Below, piece after piece: positions 1 to 42,217 of a DNA stretch of 64,000 nucleotides (position 1 is the stretch's first letter; each line of letters begins with the position of its first letter). Both the position numbers and the translations under genes were made by a program. Under the pieces are notes generated by a model. That model searched no databases, was not told where the DNA came from, and saw nothing but the letters and a program-made list of their open reading frames with translations. The stretch is from the NCBI GenBank assembly GCA_035496715.1, contig DATJEK010000095.1, forward strand, positions 264 to 64,263, in the 5' to 3' direction. This DNA is from Candidatus Eiseniibacteriota bacterium. Lineage in GTDB: Bacteria; Omnitrophota; Gorgyraeia; 2-02-FULL-51-18.

Positions 1-120
1 ATTGAAATGCAGCGACAGCGCCATGAAGAACGAGAGGTTGATGAAGAGCACGTCGATCAGCGCGATCATCTGGACGACCGGCAGCGGACGGACGTAATCG
101 CTCTGCTTGAAGCTGATCAT
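1..120 (-). CDS. ExbD/TolR-family biopolymer transport protein. N-terminal 40 codons only; the gene runs off the window start
   Basis: The reverse complement of 1-120 translates to MISFKQSDYVRPLPVVQMIALIDVLFINLSFFMALSLHFN. This matches the ExbD/TolR N-terminal TM-helix pattern (P..IDV.LVLL.IFM). The ATG (complement of 118-120) overlaps the upstream gene's stop in an ATGA arrangement, consistent with translational coupling. Confidence 0.6.
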   Translation of the reverse strand, partial: MISFKQSDYVRPLPVVQMIALIDVLFINLSFFMALSLHFN

Positions 121-836
121 CGGGCGAGCACCCGCGCGATCTCGGAGGAAAGGGCCTCGGCGGTCGTCGTGATGCGGCTGACGCGCCCGCGGAAATACGA
201 GTACGCGATGAGCGCCGGAACCGCGATCACCAGGCCGAACGCCGTGTTGATCATCGCCTTGGCGAGGCCCTGGGTGAGGACCGCGGGGTTCAGCGTGCCG
301 AGCTTGAAGTAGTTGAACGCGTCGATCATGCCCAGGATCGTGCCCAGGAGGCCGATCATCGGCGCGATCACGGCCATGTCGCCGAGATAGGTGAGGTTCT
401 GCCAGAGGCGTTCGATGCGGGCCTTGCCTTCGTACTGGATCGCCTCTTCGACGATGCCCTTGCCCTTGGCGGCTTTCTGCAGGCCCTTCTCGACGATCGC
501 CGAAATGAGGTTCGGCTGCTGACGGCAGACCGAGAGCGCCTTGTCATATTCTTTGCGCTCGATGAGAGACAGCAGGTTTTCGGTCATGTCCTGGGGGATC
601 AGCTTCTCCACGCGCACGTTCAGGAAGTGATAGATCACCACGGCCACGACGACCACCGAAAGCACGCCGAGGAAGTAGATGCACACGCCTCCGGAGGCGA
701 TGAGCTGGAGGAAGGTCATTTCCTTGTCGCCCGGACGCGCGGCGGCCGCGGCGGCGGCGTGCGCCGGCGCGCCGGACAGCAGCGCGAGGACGGCGGCGGA
801 ATACACCCAGGGACACTTGGCAGCGCGTTTATTCAT
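117..836 (-). CDS. MotA/TolQ/ExbB-family proton-channel protein (239 aa)
   Basis: ORF-track translation has an N-terminal signal/TM segment, three hydrophobic helices, and the family-typical motif IAPMIGLLGTILGMIDAFN in the C-terminal half. It is followed directly by the ExbD-like gene with a 4-nt ATGA overlap. Confidence 0.85.
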   Translation of the reverse strand: MNKRAAKCPWVYSAAVLALLSGAPAHAAAAAAARPGDKEMTFLQLIASGGVCIYFLGVLSVVVVAVVIYHFLNVRVEKLIPQDMTENLLSLIERKEYDKALSVCRQQPNLISAIVEKGLQKAAKGKGIVEEAIQYEGKARIERLWQNLTYLGDMAVIAPMIGLLGTILGMIDAFNYFKLGTLNPAVLTQGLAKAMINTAFGLVIAVPALIAYSYFRGRVSRITTTAEALSSEIARVLAR

Positions 837-927: not shown

Positions 928-3900
928 TCAGGCGGCCTGCGCGGTCGCCGAGGCGGTGAGATAGAATTCGCGCAGCTTCCTCATATAGTCGATCGGGAGG
1001 ATCGGGTGGAAGATGAGGACGCCGTCGCGGAACGAGAGCCCGCGGGCGATCACGTCCTCCCATTTGCCCCCGGCGGCGAGGAGCCGGACGACCAGCTTGT
1101 CGAGCGTCAGCGTGAAATTCCCGCCCAGGTAAAGGAGGCCCAGGCCGCCGTCCCTCGCGGAGTCGCGGCGCAGGATGGGGCGCTCTTCGCTGTCCACGAA
1201 GAAGACGTGCTCCGGCGTATAGAGCCCGCCCAGCTTGGCGAAGGCGGTCGAAAGCGTCTCCCCCGCCTCGACGAAAACGACGTTGTCGCGGAATCGCTCC
1301 ATGAAATCCGCGTATCCCTGATCGCTCAGCCGGTCCATCAGCGTGCGGTCGAGCGAATCGAAATCCGCCCGCGTCATCGCGACGTAATCGCGGATCGCCC
1401 GTTTTCCGTCGGGACGCTTCAACTTTAAGTCTCTGTCTTTCAATGACTTAAGGAACAAAGGATCTTTCAGCACCGTCTCGAGCGACCAGACGGCCGCATA
1501 CGGGGCGCGGACGTCCAGCGTCACGTCGCCCAGACTGTCGCCGAAGCTCGGATGGAAGAGCCGGAATTTGAGCACCTCCCAGGCCTCCTGAGGATCGGCG
1601 AACGCGGCAAAATCGTCGACGTCCCGCGGCGCCATGCGCGGCAGGAGCCCGATGATCTGCCGGTAGACCGCTTCCTGGTCGGCCGCCGTGAGATCGGAGA
1701 ATTTCGTGTCGCCGTCGAGCAGCAGACGCAGCGAGCGGCGCGCCTCGAGGTCCGCGGCGTTGAGCGCGCGGAGGAAAGCGATCTTCGCCTGCCGGTTCAG
1801 GTCCTGGGCGTCGACGAAGAGCGTGAAAGCGCCCGTCTTCGCCGCCTCGGCTTCGAGCGCCGCCAGACGCGCCTCGGGCTCGAGACCGTCCGCGACGACG
1901 ACCACGCGGACGTCCGCCCGCGGCCCCATCGCCTCGAGAACATCCCGGCGGGCCTCTTCGGAACCGACGCCGACGACGACGGGAGTTTCAACCGGCGGCG
2001 CGCCGGCGCGCTCGCGACCTTGAAGGTCGCGCAGAGCCAGGCGCGCGCCGGGCGGGAGCTGAAGGCGGACAAAGGCCCCGCTCCCGTCCTTGGCCTGTTC
2101 GGCGAGGAAGAACGCCTTGACGCGGTCGAAGTAGTCGCGCCGCTCGGCGTCGAGTGTTTCGCCGAAATCGTAATAGACGGACGCCGGATCCGCGTACATC
2201 GCGAATCGGTCCGCGAACGCCTCTTCCTCCGGCCGGTCCCCGCGCTCGAGGCCCCCCTTCAACTCGTTCTTGAGCGCGATGATCGACTCGCCCCGGTCCT
2301 GGAAGCGCGTGAGCCACTCCTCGATGAGCGCCTGCGCGGCCGAACGGGAGGCCGGGTCCGCGTCCAGCTGGCCCTTGGCCTCCAGCACGATGAAGAGGGC
2401 CTCGCCGATCTCGTGGAGGACGCCCATCGCCATCGTGCGCCGGAGCGTCTGTTCGTCGGCGGGCGGCAGCGGCCGGGCGGCGAGGCGTCGCGCCAGGGCC
2501 TCGAGCTCGGCGATGCGGTCGTCGGTAAGGTTCGGGAAGCGGCTGCGGTCCCTGCGGACGTGCCGCATCAAATGCTCGGGGTACATGTCGCTCTGCATGG
2601 CTTCCGTCATCTCGGTCCCCGAGAAATCCGGCACGAGGATCTCGCTGCGCATCGCCCGCCGGCGGCCGTCGGACTCGTCGCGCGCGCCCTGGATATTGCG
2701 GACGATGTACTGGAATCCCTGCGCGCCGAGGTTCACCCGGGTGCGGACGAAGGCGACGCGCTCGAGCATGAATCCGAACCCGCCCGTCGTGAGCGTCGCC
2801 GCGACGGCCTCCAGGTCCGCGTCGGAGAGAATACGGCGGTACGACGGCAGCGGCCCGGCGAGCGAGGCCAGCTGTCCGGTCGGCTGCCCGCTCCCGGCGA
2901 GCCCCTGGATCAGCGTGTCGCCGAAAAGCTCGACCGAGGACTTGAACGCCCAGCGGCCCTCGCGGACCTGCGTCATCGGCACGGACGCCGGGGCGGGCGC
3001 CTTGGGCGCGAACGCTTTCTTCACGGCGCGCGCGACGGTCTGCACGACGAATTTATTGGAGGCGTTGCGCTTGATGTCGCCCTTCGTGAGATGCGGCATC
3101 CGCGCCTCCTTCTTGATCTCCGCGAGCTTCACGGTTCCCAGCGCGGCGACGGCTTCGAGGAGCTCCCGGCCCTTCTTGGGCGTGAAATTCTTGAGCACGT
3201 CGTCGGCCACCTCGGTGATCGACGCGAGCCTCGCGCCGTAGGCGGCGAGCCTCACGGTCCACGCGCTCAGGCGCGTGAACTGCGCGTCGACGAGCGAGAG
3301 CTCGGGATCGAGGCCGTTTTTCACGGCGATCCCGCGCGCCCGGTCGAGCGCGTTGATGGCCTGGGCGTAGCGCGAAGCGGCCTCGGCGAGTTTTTCCTCC
3401 GCGATGAGCGCTTCCATGCGGTCGACGATCTCGCGCCCGCGCGCGTAAGCGTCGGCGAATTTCGCCTGCTCGACCGACTTGGGGCCCGTGAGGCGCTCCA
3501 CCTCTTTCCTCACCGCCGGCAGGGCGAGCTCGCGGTCGAGCGAGCGCACGGGGATCCCCGCGCGGCGGGCGAGCTCCTCGTTGCCGGTCAGGGTCTTGCC
3601 GTTCAGGGAGCCGGCGAAGACCGCGTCGCGGCGGAGCGCGTTGAAGATGCGCGCGGCGGCGAGGCTGATCAGATACCGGTCGAGAAGCGCTCGGAAACCC
3701 GGGTCCACGCGGCGGTAACGCTGGATCCCGGTCGAGTCGATGCCGGCGGCGGTCGCGATGCCGTTCACGCCCTTCATCAGCACGGGCTTCGACTCCGGCG
3801 CCTGCCGCGAAGCGATCCACGCGCGCTTGGCGGCATTCAAGATGCGGGCCTGCGGTTCGGAAATTTCAAAAGATTCGATCGGAAACGGCTTGAGCTTCCT

Positions 3901-6900
3901 GAGGCGCGCGAGTTCCTTCTCGTCGAACATGAGCGGCCCGTAAACGGCCGAGAATTCGGCGCGCACGGCCGCGTCGCCGCGCAGTCGGTCGAGCACCGTC
4001 TCGTCCGCGACCCCGGCGGCGGCGGCGACCGTCTGGCGCGTGAAAACGGGGTATTCCGCCTCGGGCGACGAGACGGCGGCGGCCGCGCGCAGGCGCGTCA
4101 CGCGGGTCGAATTCAAAATCGCGGCCGTCCACTCGTCCATCAGGGCGCCCCGCACGGCGAGCCTCACGGAAGCGTTTTCGGCCACCCGGCGCGCGAGCAG
4201 GTGACGATTGACGGAAACCCCGTCGGCCTTCAGCTCGGCGACGATGGTTTCGTAAACCACTTCCCGGACGACGGCGCCGGAGCGGTTGGCGCGGCGCAGG
4301 CCGTCGGCCGCCCGGAGGATGGCCGCGTCGAGCTCGCCGAGCCGCGGGGCGCGGGCGCGCGCCAGGATCCCCGCGCGGTCGGCCTCGGCGATCCGCTCGA
4401 GCCGGGCGACGCGTTCGCGGACCGGCTCGCTGTCGTCGAAATGGACTCGGAACGTCTGCTTCGAGATCTCGAGGCGGCGGTTCAGGCGGTACCCGCGGAC
4501 CGGATAGAACCGCTTCGACGGATCGACTTCGAATTCGCCGATGAGGGCGTCGAGCCTCTGCAGGATCTTCGCGCGGACCGCGGGATTGCCGGCGAGCCGG
4601 GCGCCCTGGCCGAACGCGGGGAGCTCGAAGAGCCGGTTCAGGAGTCCGTCGCTGAGATGCCGGTCTCCGGAGGCGTGGATGTCCGAGGCGGCGACGGCCA
4701 GGAAAACGGTCTTCATCTCCTCGGCGAACGCCGCGCGCTCCGTCTCGGCGAGGATGCCGCGCCGCACGAGCCCGCGCGACCAGTCCCCGATCGGGTCGCG
4801 TCCCGTGAGAAAGCGCGGCTTCTCCTGCTTCCAGCCGTCGGTCAGAAGCCAGGGATCGGTGTGTCCGAGCACGACTTTCGAGACCGCCTCCTGCACGAGC
4901 TGTCCCTCCCCCGCCGCGTGGAGCAGCGCCGGCGCGATCTCCGAGCCGTAAAGCTGGTGGGAGCCTCCTCCCAGATCCGTCGCGTAGCCGATGTCGTGAA
5001 ACGCGTTCGCGTACACGAGGATGCGCCGGCCGCGCTCGCTCAGCGCGCCGATGCGGACGATCAGCGCCTCGAGCCTGCGCTGGTCGCGGACCGCGCCGAA
5101 CTCGTCGAGCGCGAGGAAACCGCTCAAGTCGCCGGCCAGGAGCGCGTCCATCGCGCGCGCGTCGATTTGCAGGTGCTCGGAGCGCGTGCGCCGGCGGCCG
5201 ACCTGCCGCCCCTCGGCGTCGCGCATCGGCCACGATCCCTGGGCGGGGTTCTTCGTGTCGAACGCCTCGAGCGGGAACCCCTGCTCGGCCAGCGACAGAA
5301 GATAGGTCTCGGCGGGAGCCGGGGAGGCGAAAGCCTCGCCGGACGACGGCGTCCCCTGCGGGGCCGGCGGAAAGAAGGGCCGCGCCAGCTCCTCCATCTC
5401 CTCCCGCCCGGGCGTCAGGAAGGTGCGCCGGCTCGGGAGGTAGTCGGAGAGCTTGGAGGTGAAGCCGAGGCGCCGGCCGATCGCGCGGGCGATCGCCAGC
5501 GCGTAGTAACGGATCTTGTCGAGCGCGCGCTCGAAGCGGCTTTCGGTGTGCACCTTGAGATTCGCGGGGAGGAACGAATTGTCGCCGAAGACGAGCAGTT
5601 TCCAGCGCCGTTCGGCGGGCTCCCACGCGAGCACGGTCACGCTCGCGTTCCGGGGGTTGAGCAGCGCCTCGTACATCGGTTTGTATTTCCGGGACGGGAT
5701 CTGGAGCGCCGTCATGACCGCCAGGAGAATCGTCATCCCGTGGGAGCCCACGAGCACGTTCTCGTCGTTCGAACGCGTGACCGCGTCGAGCCATGCCGCG
5801 AGCCCTTCGCGGAAGCGGCGCCCGGAATAGAGTCCGTTCACCTCGTACGCGTCCGGATCGCGCGTGAAGCGGGCCATCCATCCCGGGAAGAGATCGATGC
5901 CGCTCGACACCGGCACGCCGCCGATCGGCTGGATGAGCACCTCGCGGAATTCCTTCAGCATCTCGGGCGCGCGGCCGGAGAGCCCGGCGTAGGCGCCGAC
6001 GGTCTCGTAGGCGCGTTCGAGATCGCTAGAGACGATGCGGTCGAACCGGGGGCCCGCGGCCTTCAGGAACTCCGCCAGCGCGCGCGCCTGCCGGCGGCCG
6101 CGCATCGTCAGCGGCGAGTACGCGTCGTGCGACTGCACGAAGCGGAAAAGGTTCGAGACCGACTCGCCGTGGCGCGCGAGCACGACGACCTTCGCGTCCG
6201 GATGTTCGGCGCGCCAGGCGTCGAACCCTCCGAAAAACCCGGCGGCCGTTTCGAAAACCGGCCGGAGGCGCTGCTTCTCCGACTCGTCGAGCGCGGAGAC
6301 CGCCAGGCGGGCGCCCGCGTTCTCGCCGAGCAGGCGTTCGCGGAGCAGGCCCTCGAGGAACCGCCCGCTCCCGTCCAGGTTGAGGGCCGCGCGCGTCCAG
6401 CGGTATTCGTCGCGGTCCTCGAAATAGAAAGGCTCGAGGCCGTTGCGGATCAGCAGGTAATTCATCATGAACCACGCCAGGCGGTGATGGCCTTCGGCCG
6501 CGTGGGAGCTCTCAAAAATCTTGTCCTGGCGGGACGCGCGCACCCGGGTGAAACCGGGCAGCTCGGCGAGCAGCTGGTGGACGCTGATCACGGCGTACAG
6601 GGCGGCGGCGGCGCGGACCGTCTCGGCAGGCGACGCGAAGCGACGGTTGGCGGCCCTCAGCACGTCCGGCCACACCTCGGCGAGCGACGCCAGACGCCGG
6701 GCGCGTTCGGCGGGCGTGTAGGCGGCGTTGCGCCGGTCCCCGCGGAACAATTCGTAGAGCGTCACGACCTTCTCCCAGGTCAGCGGCGCGACCGGGTCGA
6801 CCTCCCGGTTGAAATAACGGATCGCGTTCCTGAAATCCGCGTCATCGATCAGCCGGCCCGCTTTCGCCGGGTCCAGAGCCAGCCGCGCCCCCAGGGCTTC

Positions 6901-9900
6901 GAGGGGCAGACGCGCGCCGTGGTCGTGCTCGTGGTCATGATCGTGGTCATGGAAGGCGGGCGGCTCCGCGTCCGGTCCGTGCTGCGCGCGGTAGAGCGCG
7001 CGGCGGATCCTCCACTGCACCCACGTGTAGAGCGACGGGAAATAACCCAGGAAGAAATGGAACACGGCGTTCAGGCGGAAAGACTCGCTCGCCATCACGC
7101 CGCCCCGCACCTCGGTGCCGTTCACCTGCAGGGCCCCCGAATAGCCTTCCTTGCGGGCGCCGTAGACGACCCGCGCCAGGCCCAGACGCGCGAGCATCCT
7201 CGTGCACTTGGCGCACGGCTCGAGCGTCACGTAGAGCGTCGTGCCCTTGATCGCGTCGGCGAGGCTCGCGTCGAGCGCGACGAAATCGTTCGCCACGCTG
7301 TCGAAGAGGCGTTCATAGGCCTCGGAGTCGTCGAGATACCGGGCGGACTGGGCGCGCACCGACGCCAGGCGCGCCAGCGCCTCGTCGCGAACCGACGGCG
7401 CGATCGGAGCGGTGCGGGCGATCCGTTCGAACGCGTCGAGAAACGCGAAATGCTCGGCGTGGAGCTGGTTCTTCGCCTTGTTGTACCCGCGGCCGATGAT
7501 CACGCCGTCCCTGACGACGACCGCGCCGACCCGGGCCGAGAAAATGCTCCGCTCCTTCTGCGATTTCCTCGCCTCCTTCATCGCCTCTTTCATGAAGAAA
7601 CGGTCCGGATCCGCGGCGTCGGAGAGCCGCGCGCCCGACGGAGGCAGGAATTCGGGATACGCGGCCATGAGCGAGCGGACGGAGCCGTCGAGCTCGTCCT
7701 GGATCGCGTAAAGCGGCGAACGCGTCCGCTCTTCCTTGAGTTTATGGCCCGCCTTCAGGTCCTTGGCGTCGGCGAACTGGATCCAGAAGCGGCTCTGCTC
7801 GGGGCTCAGGGTCGTCCAGAATTCGAGCGCCGTGCCCGCGTCGAAGGTCGCCAAGGGCACGCCGAGCTTCCTCATGCCCTCCCGCACGGCCGCGCGGAGC
7901 GCTCCCCAGGCGGCGCGTCCGCGATCGCCGCTCTCGCCTTCGGCGAGCGACGCCAGATAGGCGCGGTAGCCCCAGTAGGACAGGTCGATCCAGCGGCGGT
8001 GGTTGTCCGCGACGTCCCCGTGGATGCCGGCGAAATGCCAGTCGGGGTTCGTGACGAGGTTGCCGAAGCGGAGCTCCAGGCGGTCGCGTTTCCGGGCCGG
8101 ATCCGACGGGTCCTGCGCCTCGTCGTTTTTCCGGAACGGGACGAGCATCTTGGCGAGGAAGAGCCTCGCATTGCCCGTGAAGAGGATCGCCGTCAGCACC
8201 GAAAGCGTCTTTCCGACCTCGGCCACGCGGGAGTCGGCGATCCCTTCCGGAAGCAGGAGATTCAGGTGCAAGGAATACGCGCCGCCTTTTTTCCCGTCCG
8301 CGACCCACGGGCCGGTCTGCGCTTCCCTGCCGGGATACGCGGCGAGCGTGGCGTGATCGGGCAGATAGCCGAATTTTCTCAGGAAGCGGTAAATCGCCTC
8401 CTGGTCGCGGGGATCCTCGGAATACGGCAGCGCGTATTCCACGATGCCGCCGTAGCCCAGCGGGATCCCGGCGACGGCCGCGAACGCCTTCGCGTCGGAC
8501 GCATTGAAAACGTCGACGTGGTGCCGCCAGACCTCGACCTCGGTGCCGGCCGTCAGATCCGTCTTCCGCTGGGAGTCGTCTCTCGCGCGGGCCGCGTAAT
8601 CGGCCTTGAGTTTCTCCGTGACGGCGGCCGCGTCGAGGCCGGACCGGAAGCCCTCGCCGCCGTCCATGAGGAACCGCACGCGCGCGGCGGGATACAGGCT
8701 CCGGTAGAGCGACGCGAGCGTCTCGTCGCGGGCCAGGAGCGCGCGGGTCAGGAGGATCATGAGACGCGCCTTTGAATTCGCCCGGAGCCTCTCCTCGAGC
8801 GGCACGGCGTCGGGACGGCCGGCCTCTTTCTCGAGCGCGGCCGCCAGGATCGGGAACACCCGCTCGTCCCGGGCGGCGGCGTGGAGGATCAGTTTGGCGA
8901 CGTTTTCCGTCCGCTCCGACTGGCGCAGGGTCGCGAACGCCTCCACGAGCCCGGCCAGCTCCTCCGCGGAGGGCCGCGGGCCCTGGGCGTACGCCGCGAT
9001 CACGAGTTTTTCGAGCTCTTCGAGGCGCGCCGGGACGTCCTTCACGGGACCGTCCCAGTACACTTCGTCGGCCGCGAGGGCGAAGCGCTCGAGGCCGTCG
9101 GCCAGCGTCGAGGAGGCGAGCCTGGCGCCCCGGCTTTCGGCCGAGGGCCGGCGGAAGCCGGCGATGAGCATTTTTTTGATCTCGGCCGTCTCCGAAGGTT
9201 CTTTGTAAAGGCCGGCCAGCGCGTGAAAGAGCGTCCTCACGTACTCCGGGTCCGCCTCGTAGTCCACCGCCAGGTCCTGGACGCTCGCGAACCGGGCATT
9301 CAGCTCGGCGGCCGTCTCCTGCGCGAGGCCGCGGCCGAAATCGGCTTCGAACTTCTTGAGCAGGTCGTCCATCGCCCCCGCCAGCGACACGGCGCGGTCG
9401 TAGGTCAGCCCGAGCGTTTCGAAATAGACGTAAAGGGAGTTTTTCCGCGCGGCCGTGCGGGCGAAACCGCCGGTGACGTTGGCCGACTCGCCGGGCATCA
9501 GGATCGACAGGAGCGTCCGGCGGGCCTCTTCTTCGAAGTGCGGCGCTTCCCCGTTGGCGCCCTCGGCCATCCGGTGATAAACCAGGGCCGTGTTGCGGAG
9601 CATCGTGATCGGGAGGAGCCCACCCTCCTCGGCGGACAGGCCGAAATAATTGACGGCCTTGGTGAAGTGAAGCCTCGCCGCGGCGAGATCCTTGCCGTCG
9701 AAGAAATACATGGAGGCGAGCGTGTATTCGCGGCGCCCGAGGTCGATGAGGTCCGCCTGGACGTTGTAGAGATGTCCGGTGCGCTCGCGGTTGCGCTCCG
9801 CCTCGACCACCAGGCGCTCGACCCGGACCGATTCCCGTTCGATGACGGCCTCGAGCGCGCGGATCTCGTCCGCGAAGTCGGTATGCGTCTCGCGCAGCGC

Positions 9901-12900
9901 CCACTCCACCCACTCGCGCACGAGCGGCTCGGCCTCGCTCGGGTCGAAATAGGCTTCCTTGAGGCGCGACACCGCCTCGGGCCCGCCGAGGCGGCCCAGC
10001 GTCCGCGCGGCGTTGGCGCGCACGCGGTAGTACTCGGAGGAGCCGGACAGGAGCAGCCGGCCCATCAGCGCGACGAGCTCGCGCGCCTCCGCCGGTTCGA
10101 GCATCTGCACGGGGATGCTTCCGAGGCGGTAGGCCGCCGCGCGCCGGGTGGTCTGGTCCCGCGAAGACAGCTCCTGTTTCAGCTGTTTCAAATCCCTGAG
10201 ATAGAGCTCGCCGTTGGCGTAGTCGAAGACCGCGATCTTCCGGGCGAGGGCGTCGTTCGTGTTCTTGGTCAGAAGGTATTCGTAGCGCGCCTTGAGAGGG
10301 CCGGAGAACTCGGAGGAGATGAGACGGTTGAGATGCCGGAGCTCCTCGAGGTTCATCCTCGAGACCACTTCGGCGAACTCCGACGGGTGGCGACCCTCCC
10401 TTTCGAGCGTCTCGAACACTTCCAGCAGATTCGAGAGCGTCCTCTCGTTGATGCGGCTTCTCAGCTGGGACTTGCCGAGATGGGCCGGCGGGATGCCGTA
10501 CACGTCGATCAGGGTTTCCTGCCGGGCGATCGTCGCGCGGGCGATGTTGATCGTCGAATACGGGATGAAGAGGATCTTCTCGCGTTTCATGAGCTCCACC
10601 GCCCGCGTGGTGACCGCGTTCGCGGACGCTTCTATGACGATCTCGCCGCGGAAACGACGCACGCTGTCTTCGTCGAACGTGTGAGGGGCCGTGTCGACGA
10701 CCAGCGCGTTGGCGTCCTCGAACTCCTGCGGCAGGAGCGGCTCCGATCTCTCCACGCGCCGGACCTCCGCGCGCTCGGGCAGGTGGTTCATCTCCACGAT
10801 CTGGTCGAACGGCATGCCGTTGACGAGCTTCGCGTTCACCCGTCTCAGGACGGGCCACGACAGCGGCTGCTGGCTCTCGAGGACGGTTCCCGCTTCCTGA
10901 ATGCCGTGGATCTCGACGCCCGTGTCGAACGCGTAACCGTCCATCAGGCTCGTCGTCGCGGTCACGCTCTTGATGCTGTACCCGAGGAAGGCCACGCGAA
11001 GCCGGCGGCCTTCCATGAAGAGCTTCCCGTCCCCGCGGAGGTAGGGGCTCTTCGCCAGGAACGCCAGCGCCGCGGCCATCCCGTCGCCCAGGCTCGTCAT
11101 GTAACGCGGGAGGCCCCCGCTGCTTTCGGAAACGCCGACCACCGGATGCGAAACGCCGCCTCGCGCGCGGCCGCGCTTCACGACGCGGAGAATGGCGTCC
11201 ATGTCCTGGATTTCCAGCCCCTGGCCGGGGCCCACGATCAGGTGCCGGCCCAGGACGCCCTGTTTTCTCATGGTTTCCGTCCAGCGAGCCAGCACGCGCG
11301 TCTTGTCCGCTCCGGGCGAGGCGACGATCTGCATCTGGGCGCCGTCCAGGAAGCTCGAACCCCTCCTCAGGTCGTCGGCGGTGTGAGCCAAAAGCGGCAC
11401 GAAAGTCAGGTCCGCGGCGCGCGCCCGCCGTTCGGCGTCGTCGGCGGGGGCGAAATAATCGAGCGGGCCGTCCGCGATGATGAGGTTCGCCGGCTGGCCG
11501 GCGCCGTAGATCGCCACCAGCGACTCGAACCCGTCCTTGTCGTCCGCGGCGGCGGGCGAACGCGAAAGATAATAGATCCTCCAGGGCATTTCGGCCGGGC
11601 GGCGTTCGGGCGCGATGCCCTGCATGAATTCCGCCGGGTCGAGCGAGACGAAGGAAACGGCGCCCGCCGTTCGGGGCAGGAAGGACTCGCTCCGGACGAT
11701 CAGTTTCCGCAGGTCGGCTCCCGGCAGGAGGGCGCGAAGATTTTCCTCGGCGGAGAGACGCGCGCCCGCCGGAGCCTCTTCACCGGCCGGAGGAACTTCC
11801 TCGTCCGCCGCCGTCGCTTCGGACGGGCCGGCCCCGCGGGTGCGCGCGCGCATGCCCACCGTCTGGAAGGTTTCGGGACTGCCCGAGAGCTTGAGCCGCT
11901 TGAACAGGTTCCGCACGTCGACCGCCGTGAAGCGGCCCTCCGAGATCGCGGCGATTTCGTCCGGCGCGGGACGCTGGTCTTCGTGCGCGGCGCGGTAGCG
12001 GGCCACGAGCGCTTTCAGGTCGGCCAGCAGCTCGGCGTCGGGACGCGCCCCCGCGGGGACCGGCCTGGCCGTGCGGCCTTCGACCCGGATGCCCACCGTT
12101 TCGTAGGTCTCGGGGCTGGCGGCCCTCTTCAGTTTCCCGAACAGCGAGCGGATGTCCGCCGCGCTGAACCGGTCTTCCGAATGCTCGGCCAGCTCGTTGG
12201 GCGTCGGCAGCGGTCCGTGCGCGGCTCTCCAGGAGAACACGAGGTCCGCCGTCTGGTTGGCCGAAGGCTCGTAACCGTTGGCGGTCCGGAACTGCTCGAC
12301 CATCCCGATCACGGTCTCGACGTCGGGGTGCTCGGCGTGTTCGGCGCGGTAATCGGCGACGAGGGTCTTGATCTCGGCCAGCGTCTCCGCGGGCGTCTGG
12401 GTCGCGGGCTTGATGCCGAGCTCCTGGTACGTGACCGGCTTGCTCGCCTTCTTGAGCTTGTAAAGCAGGTTGTAGATGAGGCTCTTGGTGAACTGGCCGT
12501 CCGAAGCGGCGGCGACCTGGTCGATCGAGGGCTGGGAGCCGGCGGCGAACTTCGTGGCGATGATCGCCTTCAGGTCGACCAGGAGCTCGTCGATGGATTT
12601 GTATTCCGAGACGACGCCGGGCGCGTCCGCGTCGTACGGGATGCCGTGGAAGTCCATGTTGAGCCGGATCGTGTGCGCGTCGACCGCGCCGTCGGACTGC
12701 GCGGCGACGTTGTTGGCCGTGGGCCGGGTGCCGGGGGGCACTTTCTTCACCAGTTTCGACAGGTACTCGATCCATTCCTCCTTCGTGCGGCGCGTTTTCA
12801 GGACGTACGTGGGTCCGTCGCCGTCGGCCGTGAACGGGATCGACTCGTAGTCGAACGCGGCGTAAATCTGGCGCACGGAGAGGGGGCTCGCGAACGCCCG

Positions 12901-33900: not shown

Positions 33901-36900
33901 GGCGTGCAGGCGGAGGAACCCGGCGATCTCGCTTTCCGCGCGGCTCCGGGGCGCCTCGTCCTGCCGGTACCACTTGAACGCGTGGAGGAAGGAAAAGTCC
34001 TCGGTCCTCTTGACGCCTTCCGTCATGAACGTGACTTCGGAGCCGGCGTTGAGCTCTTTCCAGTGGTTCGAAAGGTATTCGCGCACGAGAGCCAGCGCGT
34101 CGACCAGGGACCGCTTGGCCAGCCGCGTCTGGGCGTCGGTCGCCTTCGCGTCGAACGCGGAGGCGGCCACCGTCTCCTGGAGCCGCCCGAAGAGCGCCAT
34201 CGTCTCGTCGCGGGAGAGGTCCGAGGCCGTCTTCAATTTCCAAAGCACGCGCACGTACGCGGCGATGATCTGTCCCTTCACCTTGGCGGAAACGGCCGCC
34301 GCGTACGCGTCGCGGAGGATTTCGAGATCCTCGCGCGAGGAGGCGATGTCGCCGAAGAAAAGCGGATAGATGTAGTTCTCGTCGACGAACTCCGTGATCT
34401 CGCGACGGTAGAGGTCCTGGGCCGCGGCGTTTCCGTCGAGATGGGAGTGCGTGAGCTCGAGGCTGCGGACGAATTCCTGCAGGTCCCTGCGGACCTCGGG
34501 CTGCCGCGGCGAATAATTTTCCGGAGCCAGCCTCAGGCGCGCGAAAGCGCCCTTCAGCGCGCGGAACCGTCCATCGAACTCGGATGCGATGTAGAGCTCT
34601 TTGGCGAATTCGGGATACAGGAGCGCTTCCGCCTGTTCGGCGACGGCCTTGCGGAAGCGGACGGGCGCCTCCCGGAGCTCGTCGGGAAGCGCACTCTGCC
34701 GCAGGACGTCCTCGGCGTAGCGGCGCAGCGCGGCGCGGGCGGCGTCTTCGGAAAGGTCGGCCTGCGTTTCGACGCGCTGGCGCAGCGCCGGCAGGCGGCG
34801 CCGCAGCGATTCGATGAAAGACGATTCGGGATTGGAAGCGTCGGCATGGACGTAGAGCCGGAAGGCCGTCAGGCCCCCGCGGATCCCCTCGTCCTGGCGG
34901 GAAACCGTTTCCTGATAGCGCGCCAGCCGCTCGCGGGCCGCCAGAAGGGACCGGTATTCGGGAATGATGCCGAAATTATAGCGCTTGAGGCTCTTGCCGG
35001 GCAGCATCCCCTGCACCTTGGAGCGGACCTTCTTTTCGAAAAGAGCGTCGTGCTCGGAGAAGCGCTTGCCGCCGTCCTCCCGCCACTGACGGCGCCATTC
35101 CTGGAGAGATTCGAGGAGCGAGACGATGTCGGCCTCGGCCGCGCCGGATGCTTGAAAAAGCCTGAGCCGCTCGGCGATCCCGCGGATCGTCTCTTCCGGC
35201 ACGGCCGGCTTGTAGCCGACGCCTTTGAACGCCGTTCGCATCTGGGATTCGGCGACGACCAGCTTCTCCGCCCTCTCGACGGCGGTCGCCAGCGTCTGGC
35301 GCGCCCATTCGGGATACTCCTCGCTCGAAAGGACGCGCCCGGCGAGCCTCGCTCCCAAGGCGGCCGGCAATCCGGCGGCGCGGCGGAAAATTTCCAGGCG
35401 GCCGTTCCCCCAGTCCCCTTTCATGAAAAACTGGGCGAACCGCAGGCGGAACGACACCGGCCAGGTCAGCTCCTCCGGACGGAACTCGAGCGGCGCCTGC
35501 TTGCCGAGCCACTCGTTGGACGACGGGAACAGCGGGTTGCCGAAACGCGGCAGGAGGAACCGGAAGCGGCTGTCCTGCTCGTTGTCGCCCACGAGATAGG
35601 CGCCGTTTTTCAGGAGGTCGCGCTTGAGCGCGTTGACGGCGAGTATCTCCCTCTCGCCGCGGGCGCCGTCGGCGCGAAGGTCCTGACCGAGATACAAATC
35701 CCGGTCATCCGCGAGGAGCTCGTGATAGTAGTTCGGCGCCTTCTCGAAGAAAAGGTCGAGCCCGCCGCGGGACCGCAGGTCTTCGAGGACGGCGTCGGGC
35801 AGAGAGGACGCTTCCAGCGATTCCGTGTGGGTCGAGCCCAGGAAATAAACCGTGCGGGGCCGCGCTTGGCTCTCCGACGGATGGCGCCAGCTGAAGCGGA
35901 TCTTCCAGGCGTCGTCACCGAGGGGCAGGATCTCGAGGTCGGTGATCGGCCCGCCCTGGAGGGCGGCCATGCGCTCGAGCGAGACCAGGAAAAGCTCGCG
36001 AAGGTTGACCTTGAGCGTCCCGAAGAGCGCCTCGAGCGAGCTCTCGCCCAGGACGGGAGAGGCGACGATGGCGCGCATGAGGGCGGCTTCGCGCTCGTCG
36101 CGCTTGGGCACGCCGCGCGCGAACTCGAACTGGTCGGTCATGACGAGGAGGTCGGGGTTTCCGGCGACGAACGGATCCAGGGCGTTCGCGGCGGAGTTGA
36201 CGTAGAGGCCCGCTTTCGGAGAATTTCCGGCGTTGACCACGGAGCGGATTTCGCCGAGGTAGGCGAGGCGGCGTCTCCACTCTTTCGTTTCGAGCGATTC
36301 GCGGCCGGTCGGCTCGATCCGCTGAAGAGCCAGGCGCGCGCCCGCGCCGGCGGCGGCCGCGTCGCGGGCCGCGAGATACGCCGCGAACGGCCCTTCACGG
36401 AGCGCGGCGAGCCGTTCGCGCGTCCAGCCGCCCGCCTCGACGTCGATCCACGCCACGTCGCGGAAAGGTTCCTCGCGGTACGTCAGGATGCGCTCGATCT
36501 CGCTTTGGCGGTTGAGATCCTTGGGCGTTCCCGCGAGCTCCGGCCGGTGCGTGCGCGGATAACCGAGCGCGAAACCAACGTTGCGCGTGAATTCCTCGTC
36601 GTCGGTGTAATCGGTCAGGCGCGGCTCGTACAGCGGCTCGATGAAAATCCCCCAGCCCGTGCCCTCGAGCTGGCGGAGCGCCGTCTGGTAGGAACGCAGG
36701 CCGTGCGGCGGCGTGCTGACCAGCTGAAGGCGGGCCGTGGCGAGCCCGCGGTCGCGGAGGACCTCGGGGATCGTCTTGTCGCGGCTTTCGACGAGGTTGG
36801 CCTTCGTGTGCTGCGAGGCCTTCTCGAGATAGATGATTGTTTGGCCGTCGATCCGTGACGGCACGCCCAGATGGTTGAGAAGCTTCTCGATCAGCTCGGC

Positions 36901-39900
36901 CTCGGTCGTGCGCGATTCGCCGGCGGCCGGCGCGCGGTAGCGCCGCACGAGCGCGCGGAACGCCTCACGCTCGGCCGCCTCCATCGGGCGCGAAACGTTT
37001 TCGACGTACGAGTGCTCGATCAGGGCGAAGAGGTCGTCGGTCGCGCGGCCGATGCCGCCGGTCACGATGACCGGGACTCGCGATTTCGCGGCGCGCGCTT
37101 TCCAGAGCGACGCGAAGGCCTCGAACGCGCGCAGGTCCTGCTGGCCGAGCAGCACGTAAATGTCGGGAAGCTCGCCGGCCGGAAGCGGGTGTGAAACGGA
37201 CACGGCGTCGACGTACGGCTGGATTTCGCGCGCGGCGTCGGCTCGCGCCCGGTCCAGCGAGAGCCGGGCTCCCTGCCGCAGCACGAACACGCGGCCGTTG
37301 GGATCCGGGTGGCCCGCCGGGACCGCCAGCGGCGCGTCCATGCCGGTGAAGCCGAGCTCTTCGAGGATTTTTCTGGCGATGGAATTCATCCGGGCGCCGC
37401 CGCCCGGAAGCTCGGAAGCCGCGATGCGCAGGATCACCGTCGCGCCGGGCTTCATGACGTCGCGCACGTCGGACAGCGCCCTGCGGAAATCTTCGGGGTT
37501 CATCTGGTAATTCAGGGAGCGCGATTCGTAGTACCCCAGGATCTTGTTTTCCCGGAGCGTCGGGTCCCCGGGCGCGAGGTTGGGCACGTTCCAGACGAAC
37601 ACGTCCGCGTCCGCCGCGCCGGGGAGGCTCTTCGGCGACCGCGCCTTGACGACCGTGGCCCGGCCGCGCGCGGCCGCGTCCTCGAGAAGCGCCAGGCGCG
37701 CCCGCGCGTTCATGACCTTGAGAAGGGTCAGGTCGTACGCCTCGACGTGTCCGGCCCGGGCGGCCAGAAGCGCCGTCACCTCGCCGCCGCCCGCGCCGAT
37801 TTCGACGGCCGACGCGCCGGCGGGAACGAGGTCGGCGTTGGCCGGATCGTTCAGGACGTCCAGGAGAAGCCGCGTCGACGGATCGTCGGGTCCGAACGAA
37901 CCCGGAAACGTGAAGCCGCGCTCGGGCGAACCCGCATACTGGCGGACCGTCGTCTGGCCGAAGAAGCTGTCCCCCGCGTAGGGGTCGTCCGCGATGTTGA
38001 GCGCCCCGAACGGCGGCAGCGCGCGGTGATGCTCGGCGATGAAATCCTGCAAGAGCCTCTTCACTTGGTCGTCGCGCTGGCCGTACCAGCCCATCACCGC
38101 GCGGCCCCAGTCGTCCGCGGACCGCTTGAAGAGAGCCGCCTGGTCGTTGCGAAGGAGCGGATAATACAGAGTCTTCTCTCCGGGCCGCGACCAGACCAGC
38201 GCCAGCGGCCGCTTTTCGTGGGTCAGAAGATACAGGTCCTTCTCGAGCGATCCGAAGTCGCCGCTCTGCAGCATCCGCTCGGCGGCGTCCAGATAGGGCG
38301 CGGCCAGCCTGCGGGTGTTTTCCGCGAAGAAAACGTCCGCGGCGCTCTCGAGGGTGTCGAGCGTGGGTGAAACTTTGACTTTCCCGAATCCCGCCGCGCC
38401 GCCCGCCTGCCCGGTGGGGACGGGCTCGATGACGGCCGTCGAATCGTCGATCCCGAACGCCGCGAGAAACTGCCGGACCGGCATCTCGGGCTCGATGTCC
38501 GCGAAGACCGAACGCGCCGGCGCGGCGGTCGACAGCCTCGCCCCCAGGAGCTGGTGCTGGTGAAGCAGGCGCTCGACGTCCGATTCCTTGGCCATCCAGA
38601 CGCCGCGGGTGTACCGCTTCGTCGGGCGCGGGGCGCCTTCGGACGCGCGCACGGTCAGGACGTCGCGCAGCGGAAGCTTCAGATCGCGCAGCGAGACGTC
38701 GCCGCGGCTTTCGATCATTTTCCACTGCGGCGCCTCCGTGACCGGAACGGGCTTCACCGCGATCACTCCGACGGTGCGCTCCAGAAGCGCGTGCTTCAGC
38801 CATTCGGCGCTTTCGATCGACGCGGCGATCGATTCGTCGGTGTCGGTCTCGTCGCGGAGCTTCAGGAGATACAGGCCCTTCGGCAGTCCCTGGCCGTTGT
38901 CGTCGCCGATCTTCAGCAGCATGTCGAAACGGTTGCGCGTCCCCTGGTCCGTCGGCACCTCGAAGTCGAACCCGATGACCTGCACGCCGCCCAATCCCTC
39001 TCCCATGATTTCGTAAAGCCGGGAGGCCGTCCCCATGCGCCGCGCGTACAGCGCCAGGCGCGGTTCGGTGGGGTTGGCTCCGAGGTCGCGCATCAGCCGG
39101 CCCATGCCGGAGACGTTGAAAAATTTGGCGGCCATGGCCTGCAGCGCGTGGTGCGAGGGGTCGCCGTTCCAGACCACGTTGACCCCCTTGCCGATGTCCT
39201 TGCGCACGCGCTCCGTGATGATGTCCCTCTGCTCCTGCACCGTCTCGGGCACGGGGATCGCCTGGAAAAAACCGTTCACGGGAGAGGCGGCCAGCCGCAG
39301 GTACGAATGCGACTTCTTCACTTCGGTCAGGTCGGCCAGCCGCGGAGGACGGTCGATCCAGCTCTGCACGCGTTCGGGCCGCGGCCGCGGCAGTCCGGCC
39401 GGCAGCGCGTGCTCGGTGTCGTAATTCAGCGTCGCGATGCGCACCTGCGTCCAGCCGTGGTGCGGCGTCAGGCCTTTGCGCGGGATCAGGCGCGGGCCGC
39501 CGGCGGCGAGCACGATCCCCTGGATGTTGATGAGAAGCTCTTTCCTCAGCCAGTCGGCGCTTTCGATCTGCCGGGACAGCTGCTCTTCGGCGCGGGAGAC
39601 CATCGCCGACGGGGACACCTCGAGCGCGTCCTCCTTGGCTTCCACGAAATAGAAACCGGGCGCCAGGCTGAGGCGGTTGCGGGGACCGACGCGCAGGACG
39701 ATGTCGATCTCGTTGGTCTGGCCTTTCTTCGCGGGGACTTCCAGCCCGAGCGTCACGACTTCCGCGGCCTCGGGCCCTTCGCCGAGAATGTCGAGAAGCC
39801 GCGCGGCCGAAAAAAGCTCGCCCGCGATTTCCCGGATCTCCCCCGGATTGGGGCTCGAACCGATGCGCCTCAGGATGCGCACGACGCCCGGCACGTCCTG

Positions 39901-41892: not shown

Positions 41893-42045
41893 TTAGACTA
41901 TGAATATATAAATATATTTACTAAGAGACGCGAATAAAAAATACGCGCCAAAATAAACTCTCGAGGAGTCCATTTTTTACCTTATTTTGCCGTTTTCAGG
42001 GTTTGAAAATAGAGACCGATTTTACCCATGTCTATGCATGGCATA

Positions 42046-42074
42046 AGTTTACATGACCCCCTAGCGGGATGCAA
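42046..42074 (-). promoter_or_regulatory. Candidate sigma70-like promoter for giant gene 1: -35 TTGCAT (42069-42074), 17-nt spacer, -10 TAAACT (42046-42051)
   Basis: Read on the reverse complement. Each hexamer matches consensus at 4 of 6 positions. Several other AT-rich hexamers in the island are equally possible. Confidence 0.2.
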
Positions 42075-42115
42075 AAAAATGTGAACTCGTAACACTAATA
42101 TATGCATAGACTTAC

Positions 42116-42206
42116 AAAAAAAGGAGGCTACGCCCCGGACGATGTGGGATCGGTGTTCTGGAACCCGGCGCCGTCAGGCGGCGGGACAGATTCGCGAGGC
42201 GTAGCC
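42116..42206 (-). terminator. Candidate intrinsic terminator for giant gene 2: 9-bp stem (GGCUACGCC / GGCGUAGCC) enclosing a structured ~63-nt loop, followed by UCCUUUUUUU
   Basis: Stem arms are at 42198-42206 and 42126-42134, with the U-tract (plus-strand A7) at 42116-42122. This lies 12 nt after the TAA stop at 42218-42220. The large loop contains an internal 5-bp hairpin (CGCCG-ccuga-CGGCG). Confidence 0.35.
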
Positions 42207-42217
42207 CAGACTTTTCG

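Follow-up and report, generated by a model that had tools for sequence, protein, structure and literature searches.

The subject of this work is G1, a giant open reading frame (ORF) of 13,654 amino acids (aa) found on the minus strand of a 64,000-nucleotide stretch of contig DATJEK010000095.1 (the whole stretch is called the window below). The most informative feature of G1 is a short peptide, GARL followed in nearly all cases by Ala or Ser, that recurs along the chain and delimits its modules. We propose that G1 may encode an exported polyprotein, and from the sequence we infer that the chain is cut at the GARL delimiters; as a rough figure, a probability of 0.5 is given to this reading. No prior description of GARL delimiters, of a polyprotein nature or of cleavage sites in the Omnitrophota was found in the literature. 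A second member of the same family, G2, is present in the window and serves for comparison. The features that are needed from the start are:

928..41892, minus strand: G1, giant ORF with a GTG start, 13,654 aa, stop-free in the ORF listing
42218..64000, minus strand: G2, second family member, at least 7,247 aa, 5'-truncated, with a frame open to the window edge
2035..40011, minus strand: the 32 G-A-R-L-x sites of G1 (pentapeptide count), starting at residues 628, 1117, 1541, 1851, 2180, 2702, 3203, 3304, 3507, 3541, 3877, 4318, 4338, 5371, 5796, 6017, 6879, 7121, 7518, 7771, 7787, 8167, 8719, 10043, 10922, 11420, 11659, 11668, 11860, 12430, 12886 and 13282

Residue x of G1 occupies nucleotides 41892-3x+1 to 41892-3(x-1).

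A strict pentapeptide delimits the modules of G1

The GARL sequence occurs 32 times in G1, where 1.40 occurrences are expected and a maximum of 6 was reached across 300 shuffles; in G2 it occurs 7 times, with 0.50 expected. The original prediction, made from the DNA letters, had mentioned GARL-delimited modules only in passing, and these counts establish that they are real. The 32 sites split G1 into 33 segments, 29 of them longer than 100 aa. The median distance between sites is around 400 aa, besides four short spacers of 9-34 aa. The core of the motif is strict, and variants with one mismatch are rare. The residue that follows is Ala in 23 sites of G1, Ser in 7, and Gly and Pro in one each; when G2 is included the figures become 29, 8, 1 and 1, so that Ala or Ser is found at 37 of 39 sites. 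Both atypical sites (GARLG and GARLP) have a canonical GARLA 9-20 aa downstream, which suggests that each module junction may need one good site.

The location of the sites was examined using Pfam envelopes and local composition. None of the 32 sites of G1 lies inside a Pfam envelope (P = 0.006). Aromatic and order-promoting residues are scarce in the flanks, to a degree matched by 12 of 5,000 permutations, and Pro is enriched 1.8-fold upstream of the sites. Two independent HPr domains are bracketed exactly by delimiters: one makes up module M8 of G1 (101 aa), and the other is found in module M6 of G2 (119 aa, nucleotides 45560-45916, 33.9 bits, active-site context GLHMGP).

At the nucleotide level, the 39 sites of G1 and G2 are encoded by 28 distinct 12-mers, and their Gly, Ala and Leu codons mirror gene-wide usage. 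GARL is therefore conserved as a peptide and not as DNA. Arg codons are skewed: CGC makes up 23% of those at the 39 delimiters versus 58% gene-wide (P = 9e-6), and AGG and CGT are enriched. The possibility that rare Arg codons at the delimiter cause a translational pause was considered and rejected, as other A-R-L tripeptides behave alike (Fisher P = 0.24). The skew is probably a context effect rather than a programmed pause.

Lineage-specific delimiters bracket homologous modules

Relatives of G1 are designated here by P and L numbers. When the relaxed pattern G[AS]R[LMIVA][AS] was counted in 100 relatives, 60 occurrences were found versus 9.0 expected, in genomes with a G+C content (GC) of 0.46-0.66. 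Counting G1 and G2, the pattern is individually significant (p < 1e-3) in 11 of 102 family proteins, from genomes of 46-68% GC; P0002, a protein of the GARL class, sits on a contig of 48% GC. In a comparison made within the same loci, the family ORFs yielded 28 sites over 23,047 aa, and the neighboring ORFs (15,824 aa) yielded none. The residue after GARL is Ala or Ser in 79% of the sites of relatives.

An unbiased search for dispersed k-mers in family proteins yielded the following lineage-specific motifs:

P0029 (5,725 aa): GARL, 12 copies
L002: GARM, 4 copies
P0010: GARAA, 4 copies
L004: AAKLA, 3 copies
P0034, P0038 and P0043: RSELR, 8, 10 and 5 copies
P0013, P0017 and P0019: RSELR, RSETR and RSEVR, 3 copies each
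P0050 (NCBI MFC1589980.1, Candidatus Omnitrophota): [KR][KR][KR]SPSG, 9 copies, aa 961-5379
P0024: [AS]SLGQ, 6 copies

The residue after RSE[LTV]R is Ala, Ser, Thr or Gly in 63% of the sites, compared with a background of 27%.

The key comparative result is that homologous modules are bracketed by the motif of each lineage. The SecA-like module is flanked by RSELR in three proteins (241 aa upstream and 139-140 aa downstream of the aligned core), by SPSG in P0050 (242 aa before and 121 aa after), and by GARL in G1 and P0029. The DUF218 module of G1 (M4) recurs in P0029, where it begins 17 aa past a GARL; in G1 the distance is 11 aa. The M17 cassette of G1 recurs directly after the conserved N-terminal domain (the head, see below) of L002, with AARMA before it and GARMA after it. 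Recurrence of M4 and M17 at different positions of other proteins, each time beginning beside a delimiter, indicates that modules have been shuffled as cassettes that either carry or acquire the local delimiter. Between G1 and L002, the head and one shuffled module align, and nothing else does.

A separate observation concerns P0050, which is annotated only as 'methyltransferase domain-containing protein': its polybasic junction motif resembles the dibasic sites of proprotein convertases.

Conserved head, SecA-like core and C-terminus of the family

The N-terminal part of G1 contains the following feature:

40093..41844, minus strand: signal peptide and conserved head, aa 17 to around 600, with the TIKI/TraB/ChaN/erythromycin-esterase fold

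An in-frame ATG is found at nucleotides 41844-41842 (aa 17), immediately before the signal-peptide-like sequence MKLRALSAVLIAAFFCQDLASAQG. Because MKLRALSAVLIAAFFCQDLASAQG follows this codon, resembles a signal peptide of the Sec type and can be aligned with the starts of related proteins, the ATG at aa 17 is a likelier start than the GTG, and the product would then have 13,638 aa.

The head, which comprises the N-terminal ~560 residues, is the only part of G1 with many relatives. It shows the characteristic alpha/beta fold of the TIKI/TraB/ChaN/erythromycin-esterase superfamily, which also includes PrgY. Two traits set it apart from that superfamily: none of the Pfam and NCBIfam models detects it, and its alpha/beta core is split by a large helical insertion of ~300 residues. 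In 19 head sequences, H76, E104, R444 and G469-G470-x-H472 are invariant (numbering from the ATG). Among the proteins that share its fold are the MARTX effector RRSP and the type III effector HopBA1. We consider the head a candidate enzyme, hydrolase-like by its fold, from a superfamily that includes proteases.

Homologs of the head were found in 20 database proteins, and all those with a named source belong to Candidatus Omnitrophota/Omnitrophica. In a collection with one genome per species, relatives of the head were detected at 399 loci. The best 80 of these 399 loci belong to Omnitrophota metagenome-assembled genomes (MAGs) or to MAGs auto-labelled 'uncultured Planctomycetia', and many of these genomes hold several copies; among the head-bearing MAGs, the Tantalella lineage was confirmed as Omnitrophota. 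The guess that the DNA comes from an Omnitrophota-like lineage is thus borne out indirectly, with the proviso that part of those best 80 loci carry automatic labels of the Planctomycetes-Verrucomicrobia-Chlamydiae group. At almost every locus the ORF with the head continues past the end of the retrieved DNA, and hence exceeds 3,900 aa.

The SecA-like core gave 4,785 relatives at E <= 1e-3, a set that includes SecA proteins of canonical size. The core of G1 (module M24) is ~28% identical to canonical-size SecA, compared with 39-46% identity to the SecA-like cores of other long proteins. Among 20 long SecA-bearing relatives, 14 have the head at their N-terminus, and 16 end in [ASQK]-A, an ending shared by only 7 of 108 canonical-size SecA matches. 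A transmembrane (TM) cluster is commonly found 100-500 aa upstream of the SecA-like module in relatives.

Proteins of the GARL type end in AA and those of the RSExR type in SA; the endings ...QA and ...KA also occur in the family. It was also observed that the C-terminal dipeptide seems to co-vary with the type of delimiter (G1, nucleotides 928-960; G2, nucleotides 42218-42250; P0002, P0010, P0029, P0034, P0038 and others). No curated sorting-signal model matched the ...SAA end in an NCBIfam scan. As to the tails, only those of G2 and P0002 are detectably homologous (8e-8), and the tail of G1 shares only the short terminal pattern.

Cysteine is nearly absent from these proteins: G1 has 3 cysteines in 13,654 aa and G2 has 1 in 7,247 aa (aa 2316), while the small ExbB-family protein encoded next to G1 has 3 in 239 aa. 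The cysteines of G1 are located at aa 32, in the signal peptide, and at aa 11560 and 11563, in the deaminase module M27, where they are read as a zinc-binding PCxxC. The median cysteine content is 0.11% in the family and 0.71% in canonical-size SecA matches.

Complete family members range from 1,563 aa (P0002, which has the head, six GARL sites and the end ...AIGSAA) to the 13,654 aa of G1. The smallest complete member that also carries a SecA-like module is P0025, with 1,795 aa. In two head-bearing loci, L076 (aa ~2670-3600) and L078 (aa ~1545-2290), extended arrays of near-identical tandem repeats of ~65 aa and ~96 aa were observed after the head. Since L076 and L078 are of the type described as 'tandem-repeat scaffold' giant proteins, the same head tops both architectural classes.

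Given the homology of the head, the long relatives of the SecA core and an architecture that matches published giant proteins, G1 belongs to a family of giant, essentially cysteine-free, exported proteins with a head-cargo-SecA-tail organization. This family overlaps the published Archaeovorins and multi-enzyme giant proteins (see below).

Module content of G1

Domains were searched with Pfam, both along the whole G1 chain and in each GARL-delimited module. The modules with an assignment are, together with the C-terminal one:

37261..38532, minus strand: M3, S-adenosylmethionine (SAM)-methyltransferase-like, weak (Methyltransf_25, 19.5 bits, below the gathering score)
36331..37260, minus strand: M4, DUF218 (YdcF-like), 32 bits
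31972..32274, minus strand: M8, 101 aa, exactly one HPr domain, active-site context GLHMRP
28930..30252, minus strand: M12, alpha/beta-hydrolase, FrsA-like and S9/S33 peptidase-like, Pfam matches up to 43.6 bits
25771..28869, minus strand: M14, 1,033 aa, two LOG/Lysine_decarbox domains, 68 bits
21247..23832, minus strand: M17, GH13-like with low confidence (predicted model and Foldseek)
19330..20520, minus strand: M19, SAM-methyltransferase-like, weak, 17.7 bits
18571..19329, minus strand: M20, sole TM cluster of G1, signal-peptidase-II (LspA)-like, PF01252
17383..18522, minus strand: M22, Methyltransf_12-like, 23.7-31.6 bits
11755..15726, minus strand: M24, SecA-like motor with NBD1/DEAD, PPXD and NBD2, Walker A 'SEGKT' and 'EEAD'
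9118..11754, minus strand: M25, HEAT repeats (HEAT_2), 40 bits
6907..7623, minus strand: M27, cytidine/deoxycytidylate-type (MafB19-like) deaminase
4594..6303, minus strand: M30, His_Phos_1 (PGAM-type), 101.3 bits, and a weak HD match, 17.4 bits
931..2037, minus strand: M33, C-terminal module, ends ...TASATAQAA

Nearly all the domain calls that had originally been made from motifs were reproduced by hidden Markov model (HMM) or fold searches, some of them below threshold. The HPr, alpha/beta-hydrolase, two LOG, SecA, deaminase and PGAM-type phosphatase domains were recovered by Pfam. The three SAM methyltransferases gave matches that are all below the Pfam gathering thresholds (19.5, 17.7 and 23.7 bits), and the HD domain is present as a weak match (17.4 bits). 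DUF218, found in M4, was absent from the original list. The His-Asp tract was located precisely, as HDHDHDHEHDH at aa 11648-11658, and the TM cluster is real. The designation 'membrane protein' stands in part: G1 has one signal peptide and one TM cluster, which amounts to only 4-5 helices in 13,654 residues.

Relevant observations on individual modules can be summarized as follows:

(i). The HPr domain of M8 (aa 3218-3295, 36.9 bits) covers positions 2-75 of the 81 of the PF00381 profile. M14 is homologous over nearly its full length to aa 5045-6022 of P0021 (E 2e-162).

(ii). M17 gave no match to Pfam, NCBIfam or PDB sequences (phmmer), and a single database homolog was found. Its AlphaFold2 model, built from a two-sequence alignment, has a pLDDT (predicted local distance difference test score) of 45.7. 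All of the 50 best Foldseek matches of this model are GH13 enzymes, with E values down to 7e-9 and a TM-score of only ~0.17. The GH13-like barrel of the original prediction may be maintained with low confidence, from the consistency of the Foldseek matches to a predicted model.

(iii). In M24, SecA_DEAD (PF07517), SecA_PP_bind (PF01043) and P-loop_SecA (PF21090) scored 75, 45 and 51 bits, and no SecA scaffold or wing family was found by Pfam at E <= 0.05. In the C-terminal part of this module (aa ~9560-10040, nucleotides ~11770-13210), around six degenerate repeats of 70-80 aa were seen by eye. Their pattern, ...DEW..L..L....P.....P....VA..S...F.......L..., is too divergent for BLAST self-comparison.

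(iv). In M27, the best match is dCMP_cyt_deam_1 (63 bits), followed by MafB19-deam (52 bits), and the Bd3614 family was also matched. The HDHDHDHEHDH tract (nucleotides 6919-6951) is the C-terminal tail of this deaminase and directly precedes the double delimiter GARLPLEALGARLA. Such a tail may bind metal.

A total of 16 modules of G1 gave no Pfam or NCBIfam match, and an NCBIfam scan of 20 Pfam-dark modules and both tails yielded nothing useful. Glycosyltransferase, NUDIX, C39 peptidase and S8 peptidase domains were not detected in G1 by the Pfam scans. The content of glycoside hydrolase or peptidase type consists of the low-confidence GH13-like, LspA-like and S9/S33-like matches in G1, to which a weak glycosyltransferase/phosphorylase match in G2 (Pfam) can be added. 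No two modules of G1 are similar by BLAST, in agreement with the heterogeneous chain that had been described. The repeats claimed in the original prediction fared less well: BLAST self-comparison gave no off-diagonal matches and TRF detected no relevant DNA tandem repeats, and only the HEAT repeats have the support of a tool. Our first expectation for a giant ORF in DNA of 68% GC was a polyketide synthase or a nonribosomal peptide synthetase; this identity was rejected as no domain of either kind appeared in any Pfam scan.

Candidate proteases within the chain

Three parts of G1 may be considered candidate proteases on the basis of sequence or fold: the head, M20 (LspA-like) and M12 (S9/S33-like).

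The TM cluster of M20 has 4-5 helices and is confined to aa 7521-7740 according to a hydropathy scan. Alignment with Escherichia coli LspA pairs VVDMI with ATDMI and FNLAD with ANPAD, with conservation of both Asp residues, which we take to be the catalytic residues of LspA, and of the preceding Asn. M20 and LspA (PF01252, MEROPS A8) are both membrane domains of 4-5 helices; however, M20 is embedded in a giant chain, and a lipobox is excluded as its natural substrate, given that cysteine is all but lacking in the family. An LspA lipobox register for the delimiter (L-A/S-G/A|C) was likewise rejected, as position Leu+2 is not confined to small residues and the family lacks cysteine. A similar LspA-like module with the same Asp pattern is carried by P0018. 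No earlier account of an LspA-like module of giant proteins that retains the two aspartates was found in the literature. M20 gave no match in a phmmer search against the PDB nor in a search of 5.8 billion proteins, and an HMM that combined M20, P0018 and E. coli LspA recovered no additional copies among ~100 family sequences (80 locus ORFs, P0001-P0020, G1 and G2).

Like SecA, M24 has NBD1 with Walker A, PPXD and NBD2. In contrast with canonical SecA, it lacks the helical scaffold, wing and C-terminal domains, and it is an internal module of a larger chain. From its domain composition, M24 would act like a SecA motor at most, and not as a canonical SecA.

Coding capacity and neighborhood of G1

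G1 is an uninterrupted ORF of 41 kb, as originally described; the strand had been left unstated, and is the minus strand, while the coordinates 928-41892 hold. Codon-position GC is uniform across all 500-aa blocks (GC1 0.66-0.75, GC2 0.41-0.50, GC3 0.83-0.93); the frame is therefore coding over its full length, and a random open frame is excluded, as had been claimed. The GC of the window, 68%, is unusually high. Long ORFs of 2,400-4,725 aa are also found on the plus strand opposite the giant genes (1552-8775, 8881-17319, 17530-25272, 25336-33099 and 45869-60046). We interpret them as non-coding shadow ORFs of GC-rich coding DNA, which should not be annotated as genes.

Other features of the neighborhood are:

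41893..42217, minus strand: intergenic spacer between G2 and G1, 325 bp, GC 0.44 versus 0.68
117..836, minus strand: gene for a MotA/TolQ/ExbB-family proton channel, 239 aa, downstream of G1

The spacer between G2 and G1 contains a terminator-like hairpin and T-run (42136-42124), together with a single sigma-70-like promoter site (42034-42006). Because of these terminator-like and promoter-like sites, G2 and G1 are probably separate transcription units arranged in tandem. G2 contains a GHMP-kinase-like module, TM clusters, one of them of ~7 helices at aa ~1907-2180, and the end ...AVGSAA. The spacer between G1 and the ExbB-family gene has 91 bp and a GC of 0.49. This ExbB/TolQ-type neighbor fits the TonB-type neighbors of giant genes reported by Nielsen & Lui (10.64898/2026.06.07.730766). 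In L082, the contig of P0002, genes for an ABC solute-binding protein and a permease follow P0002 (nucleotides 9422-11619), and they match the conserved downstream context reported for giant genes.

Relationship of G1 with known giant proteins of Omnitrophota

Giant ORFs occur in most classes of the phylum Omnitrophota (Seymour et al. 2023), whose members have been reported as predators or parasites. West-Roberts et al. described the 'Archaeovorins', giant Omnitrophota proteins of at least 30 thousand amino acids (kAA) with many TM helices, a divergent SecA_DEAD/PPXD without scaffold or wing, methyltransferases, HEAT repeats, hydrolases and peptidases, and stated that their cleavage points are unknown (10.1101/2023.11.21.568195). 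A catalogue of 5,761 Omnitrophota proteins of at least 10 kAA, 94% of which have a signal peptide or TM helices, was later published by Nielsen & Lui (2026, 10.64898/2026.06.07.730766). It includes a 'multi-enzyme metabolic cluster' (class 1), a SecA_DEAD architecture cluster and signal-peptidase-II content; neighbors of TonB/ExbB and solute-binding type are described, as well as complete long-read genomes with proteins of at least 10 kAA. The published interpretation is that giant proteins are membrane-anchored and surface-exposed, with a role as 'cell coat / attachment and cell-wall degradation'.

G1 shares with these proteins the phylum, a single ORF above 10 kAA, a signal peptide and TM helices, and a divergent SecA_DEAD and PPXD without scaffold or wing and with a TM cluster ahead. 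Other common traits are methyltransferases, HEAT repeats, hydrolases, signal-peptidase-II content, the presence of many distinct Pfam families with none dominant, large Pfam-dark stretches and neighbors of TonB/ExbB and solute-binding type. There are also differences. With 13.6 kAA, G1 is below the 30 kAA of the 2023 set, although it is above the 10,000-aa threshold of the 2026 catalogue; no glycosyltransferase, NUDIX, C39 or S8 domain was detected; and its GC is unusually high (68%). The TIKI/TraB-fold head, the delimiter pentapeptides, the ...AA/...SA C-terminus and the cysteine depletion are mentioned in neither of the two preprints.

Two statements of the original prediction must be corrected in the light of this literature. 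Proteins above 10,000 aa are not extremely rare, as 5,761 are known in this phylum (10.64898/2026.06.07.730766), and the view that G1 corresponds to no known system was overstated: the same architecture is found in both preprints (10.1101/2023.11.21.568195 and 10.64898/2026.06.07.730766). The statement that the giant proteins have no assigned mechanism is still correct, in that no experimentally characterized mechanism exists for them. We conclude that G1 is a real gene from an uncultivated bacterium of the Omnitrophota with a high GC, and that it is new within a class that has been described but is mechanistically unsolved.

Exported polyprotein or intact chain

The polyprotein reading can be formulated as follows. 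The chain starts with the signal peptide and the TIKI/TraB-fold head, continues with ~29 mutually unrelated, protein-sized modules and finishes with the ...AA end of the family. The pentapeptides would be recognition sites of a site-specific endopeptidase, which would make G1 a polyprotein or pro-protein. After or during Sec-type export, for which the signal-peptide-like N-terminus and the cysteine depletion are suggestive features, the chain would be cut into individual enzymes and binding proteins, ~30 in all. Export is likely helped in cis by the TM module and by the SecA-like motor carried in the chain. The likeliest scissile bond would be that between Leu and the small residue (GARL|A/S), and likewise RSELR|small and KRK|SPSG; cuts at GARL|A/S would leave small residues as new N-termini. 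The cutter might be the head, the LspA-like M20 or the S9/S33-like M12, and the released products may act in the envelope or at the predator-prey interface.

A comparison can be made with viral polyproteins such as those of picornaviruses and flaviviruses and the coronavirus replicase. These too are encoded by one ORF that gives many mature proteins, and they have short junction motifs with a small P1' residue, an in-chain protease, some spacer peptides and a lineage-specific specificity. G1 differs in being a cellular, bacterial gene, in having metabolic and regulatory enzymes as modules instead of replication proteins, and in that its processing is putative. It is also around two to six times longer than typical viral polyproteins.

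Several observations weigh against the polyprotein reading. Cleavage is a prediction from sequence, and a published proteomics re-analysis of a related giant protein yielded only 381 short peptides, too sparse to show fragments. Modules that depend on SAM, phosphoenolpyruvate (PEP) or ATP make little sense outside the cytoplasm. Not every domain boundary carries a GARL site: M14 (1,033 aa), M24 (1,324 aa) and M30 (His_Phos and HD) are large or two-domain modules without an internal one. In P0021-P0028, which are the nearest SecA relatives, no exact dispersed motif was found, so the delimiters are degenerate in many family members or not universal. The candidate proteases have weaknesses of their own. 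The superfamily of the head includes several non-proteases (esterases and haem binders), and a protease role of the head is a candidate role only. The match of M20 to PF01252 is below the gathering threshold (23.2 bits, cut-off 25, E 8.6e-5). A universal presence of LspA-like modules in the family is unsupported, as P0018 is the only one of ~100 sequences, besides G1, that has it.

The existence of the delimiters admits other explanations. The main one is that the giant scaffold remains intact and that GARL[A/S] is an uncut linker, a docking motif or a hinge, an alternative that we regard as possible but doubtful. The motif might be read by a chaperone, by the in-chain SecA-like motor in stepwise export or by HEAT/TPR scaffolds, or it might be a structural hinge that prevents modules from misfolding together. 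Such a scaffold agrees with the published preference for membrane-anchored, surface-exposed giant proteins. A motif located in flexible linkers suits a hinge or a docking function as well as a cut site, the SecA preprotein-binding domain is present in cis, several modules remain multi-domain, and no dedicated protease of known specificity has been identified. However, a hinge does not need a strictly invariant pentapeptide that is replaced wholesale between lineages (GARLA, RSELR, KRKSPSG), and wholesale replacement is the pattern expected from co-evolution with a sequence-reading enzyme. In addition, a small residue right after the motif is a typical P1' signature of protease sites, the polybasic KRK-SPSG resembles classic proprotein-processing sites, and the tandem double sites 9-34 aa apart resemble spacer peptides. 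An intact scaffold fits the published 'coat' idea but explains the lineage-specific, invariant spelling less well. A further alternative, a variant of the polyprotein reading in which the products would act elsewhere, is a multi-effector toxin like the MARTX proteins of Vibrio: the chain, or large parts of it, would enter prey, be cut at Leu-Ala/Ser and free cytoplasm-type enzymes that subvert prey metabolism. MARTX proteins are, like G1, huge secreted chains with unrelated, shuffled enzymatic modules between conserved ends, and MARTX effectors are released via cleavage after Leu in inter-domain linkers. A toxin of this kind would explain the presence on an exported chain of cytoplasmic-type enzymes that need SAM, PEP or nucleotides (HPr, LOG, deaminase, PGAM phosphatase, HD, methyltransferases). 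The deaminase matches the toxin-type families MafB19 and Bd3614, cysteine depletion is typical of proteins that cross membranes unfolded, the fold relatives of the head include RRSP and HopBA1, and Omnitrophota are reported predators or parasites. Nonetheless, we consider this explanation improbable. It rests on analogy; Pfam and repeat scans and inspection of the window detected no MARTX repeats (glycine-rich, RTX-type), no C80 cysteine protease domain, no type I secretion genes and no translocation apparatus; and the best deaminase match is the housekeeping dCMP_cyt_deam_1 (63 bits) and not a toxin family. Furthermore, a signal peptide of Sec type, a TM cluster inside the chain and a SecA-like motor are present in G1, whose ~30 modules contrast with the ~3-5 effectors of a MARTX.

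Two more explanations do without a protein-level role of the pentapeptide. It could be a DNA-level recombination junction for in-frame shuffling of cassettes. Modules do move between proteins and positions, and the commonest coding version of the delimiter, GGCGCGCGCCTG, holds a GC-rich palindrome and has 5 occurrences. This alternative is very improbable, and is largely refuted by the codon data: 28 different 12-mers are found at 39 sites, with Gly, Ala and Leu codons as gene-wide, the peptide persists unchanged across genomes of 46-68% GC, and no DNA repeats flank the sites. Lastly, the giant ORF might be an artefact, either an assembly chimera or a series of ordinary neighboring genes fused by sequencing errors. 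The sequence presumably comes from a metagenomic assembly, and an exact copy of the neighboring ExbB protein is absent from the gene-position index. Even so, an artefact is scarcely credible when set against 41 kb without a stop and with an unbroken codon-position signature, GARL delimiters in frame at all junctions, and hundreds of loci with head ORFs that run past 3,900 aa. The same head, internal SecA and ...AA tail are present in independent assemblies, which include complete proteins of 1.8-6.2 kAA, and the literature reports complete long-read genomes with proteins of at least 10 kAA.

Significance for the biology of Omnitrophota

Giant genes make up a sizeable share of very small Omnitrophota genomes, and two recent studies could not explain the function of their products. 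In the 2023 study, module-wise structure prediction was blocked because the cleavage points were unknown (10.1101/2023.11.21.568195). The junction motif provides a concrete handle, as it is conserved and family-specific and has lineage-specific equivalents that bracket homologous modules. Even if the chain is uncut, the head, the SecA-like motor after a TM cluster, the ...AA/...SA end and the near-zero cysteine content define a coherent family, and these four features constrain its cell biology to that of an exported protein in unfolded transit.

A broader proposal, to which we would give slightly less than even odds, is that the giant proteins of Omnitrophota are cellular polyproteins, 'operons in protein form', with a lineage-specific five-residue cleavage code read by a co-evolving in-chain protease, either the head or the LspA-like module. 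If this is true, one exported, cysteine-free precursor of up to 10^4-10^5 residues would give rise to dozens of stand-alone enzymes. The delimiters would then supply the missing 'cleavage points', and the giant proteins of the phylum could be parsed computationally into mature products. Should the motif be a cut site, bacteria would use virus-style polyprotein expression at an unmatched scale, thousands of catalogued giant proteins could be divided into their real functional units, and the responsible protease would become a testable target.

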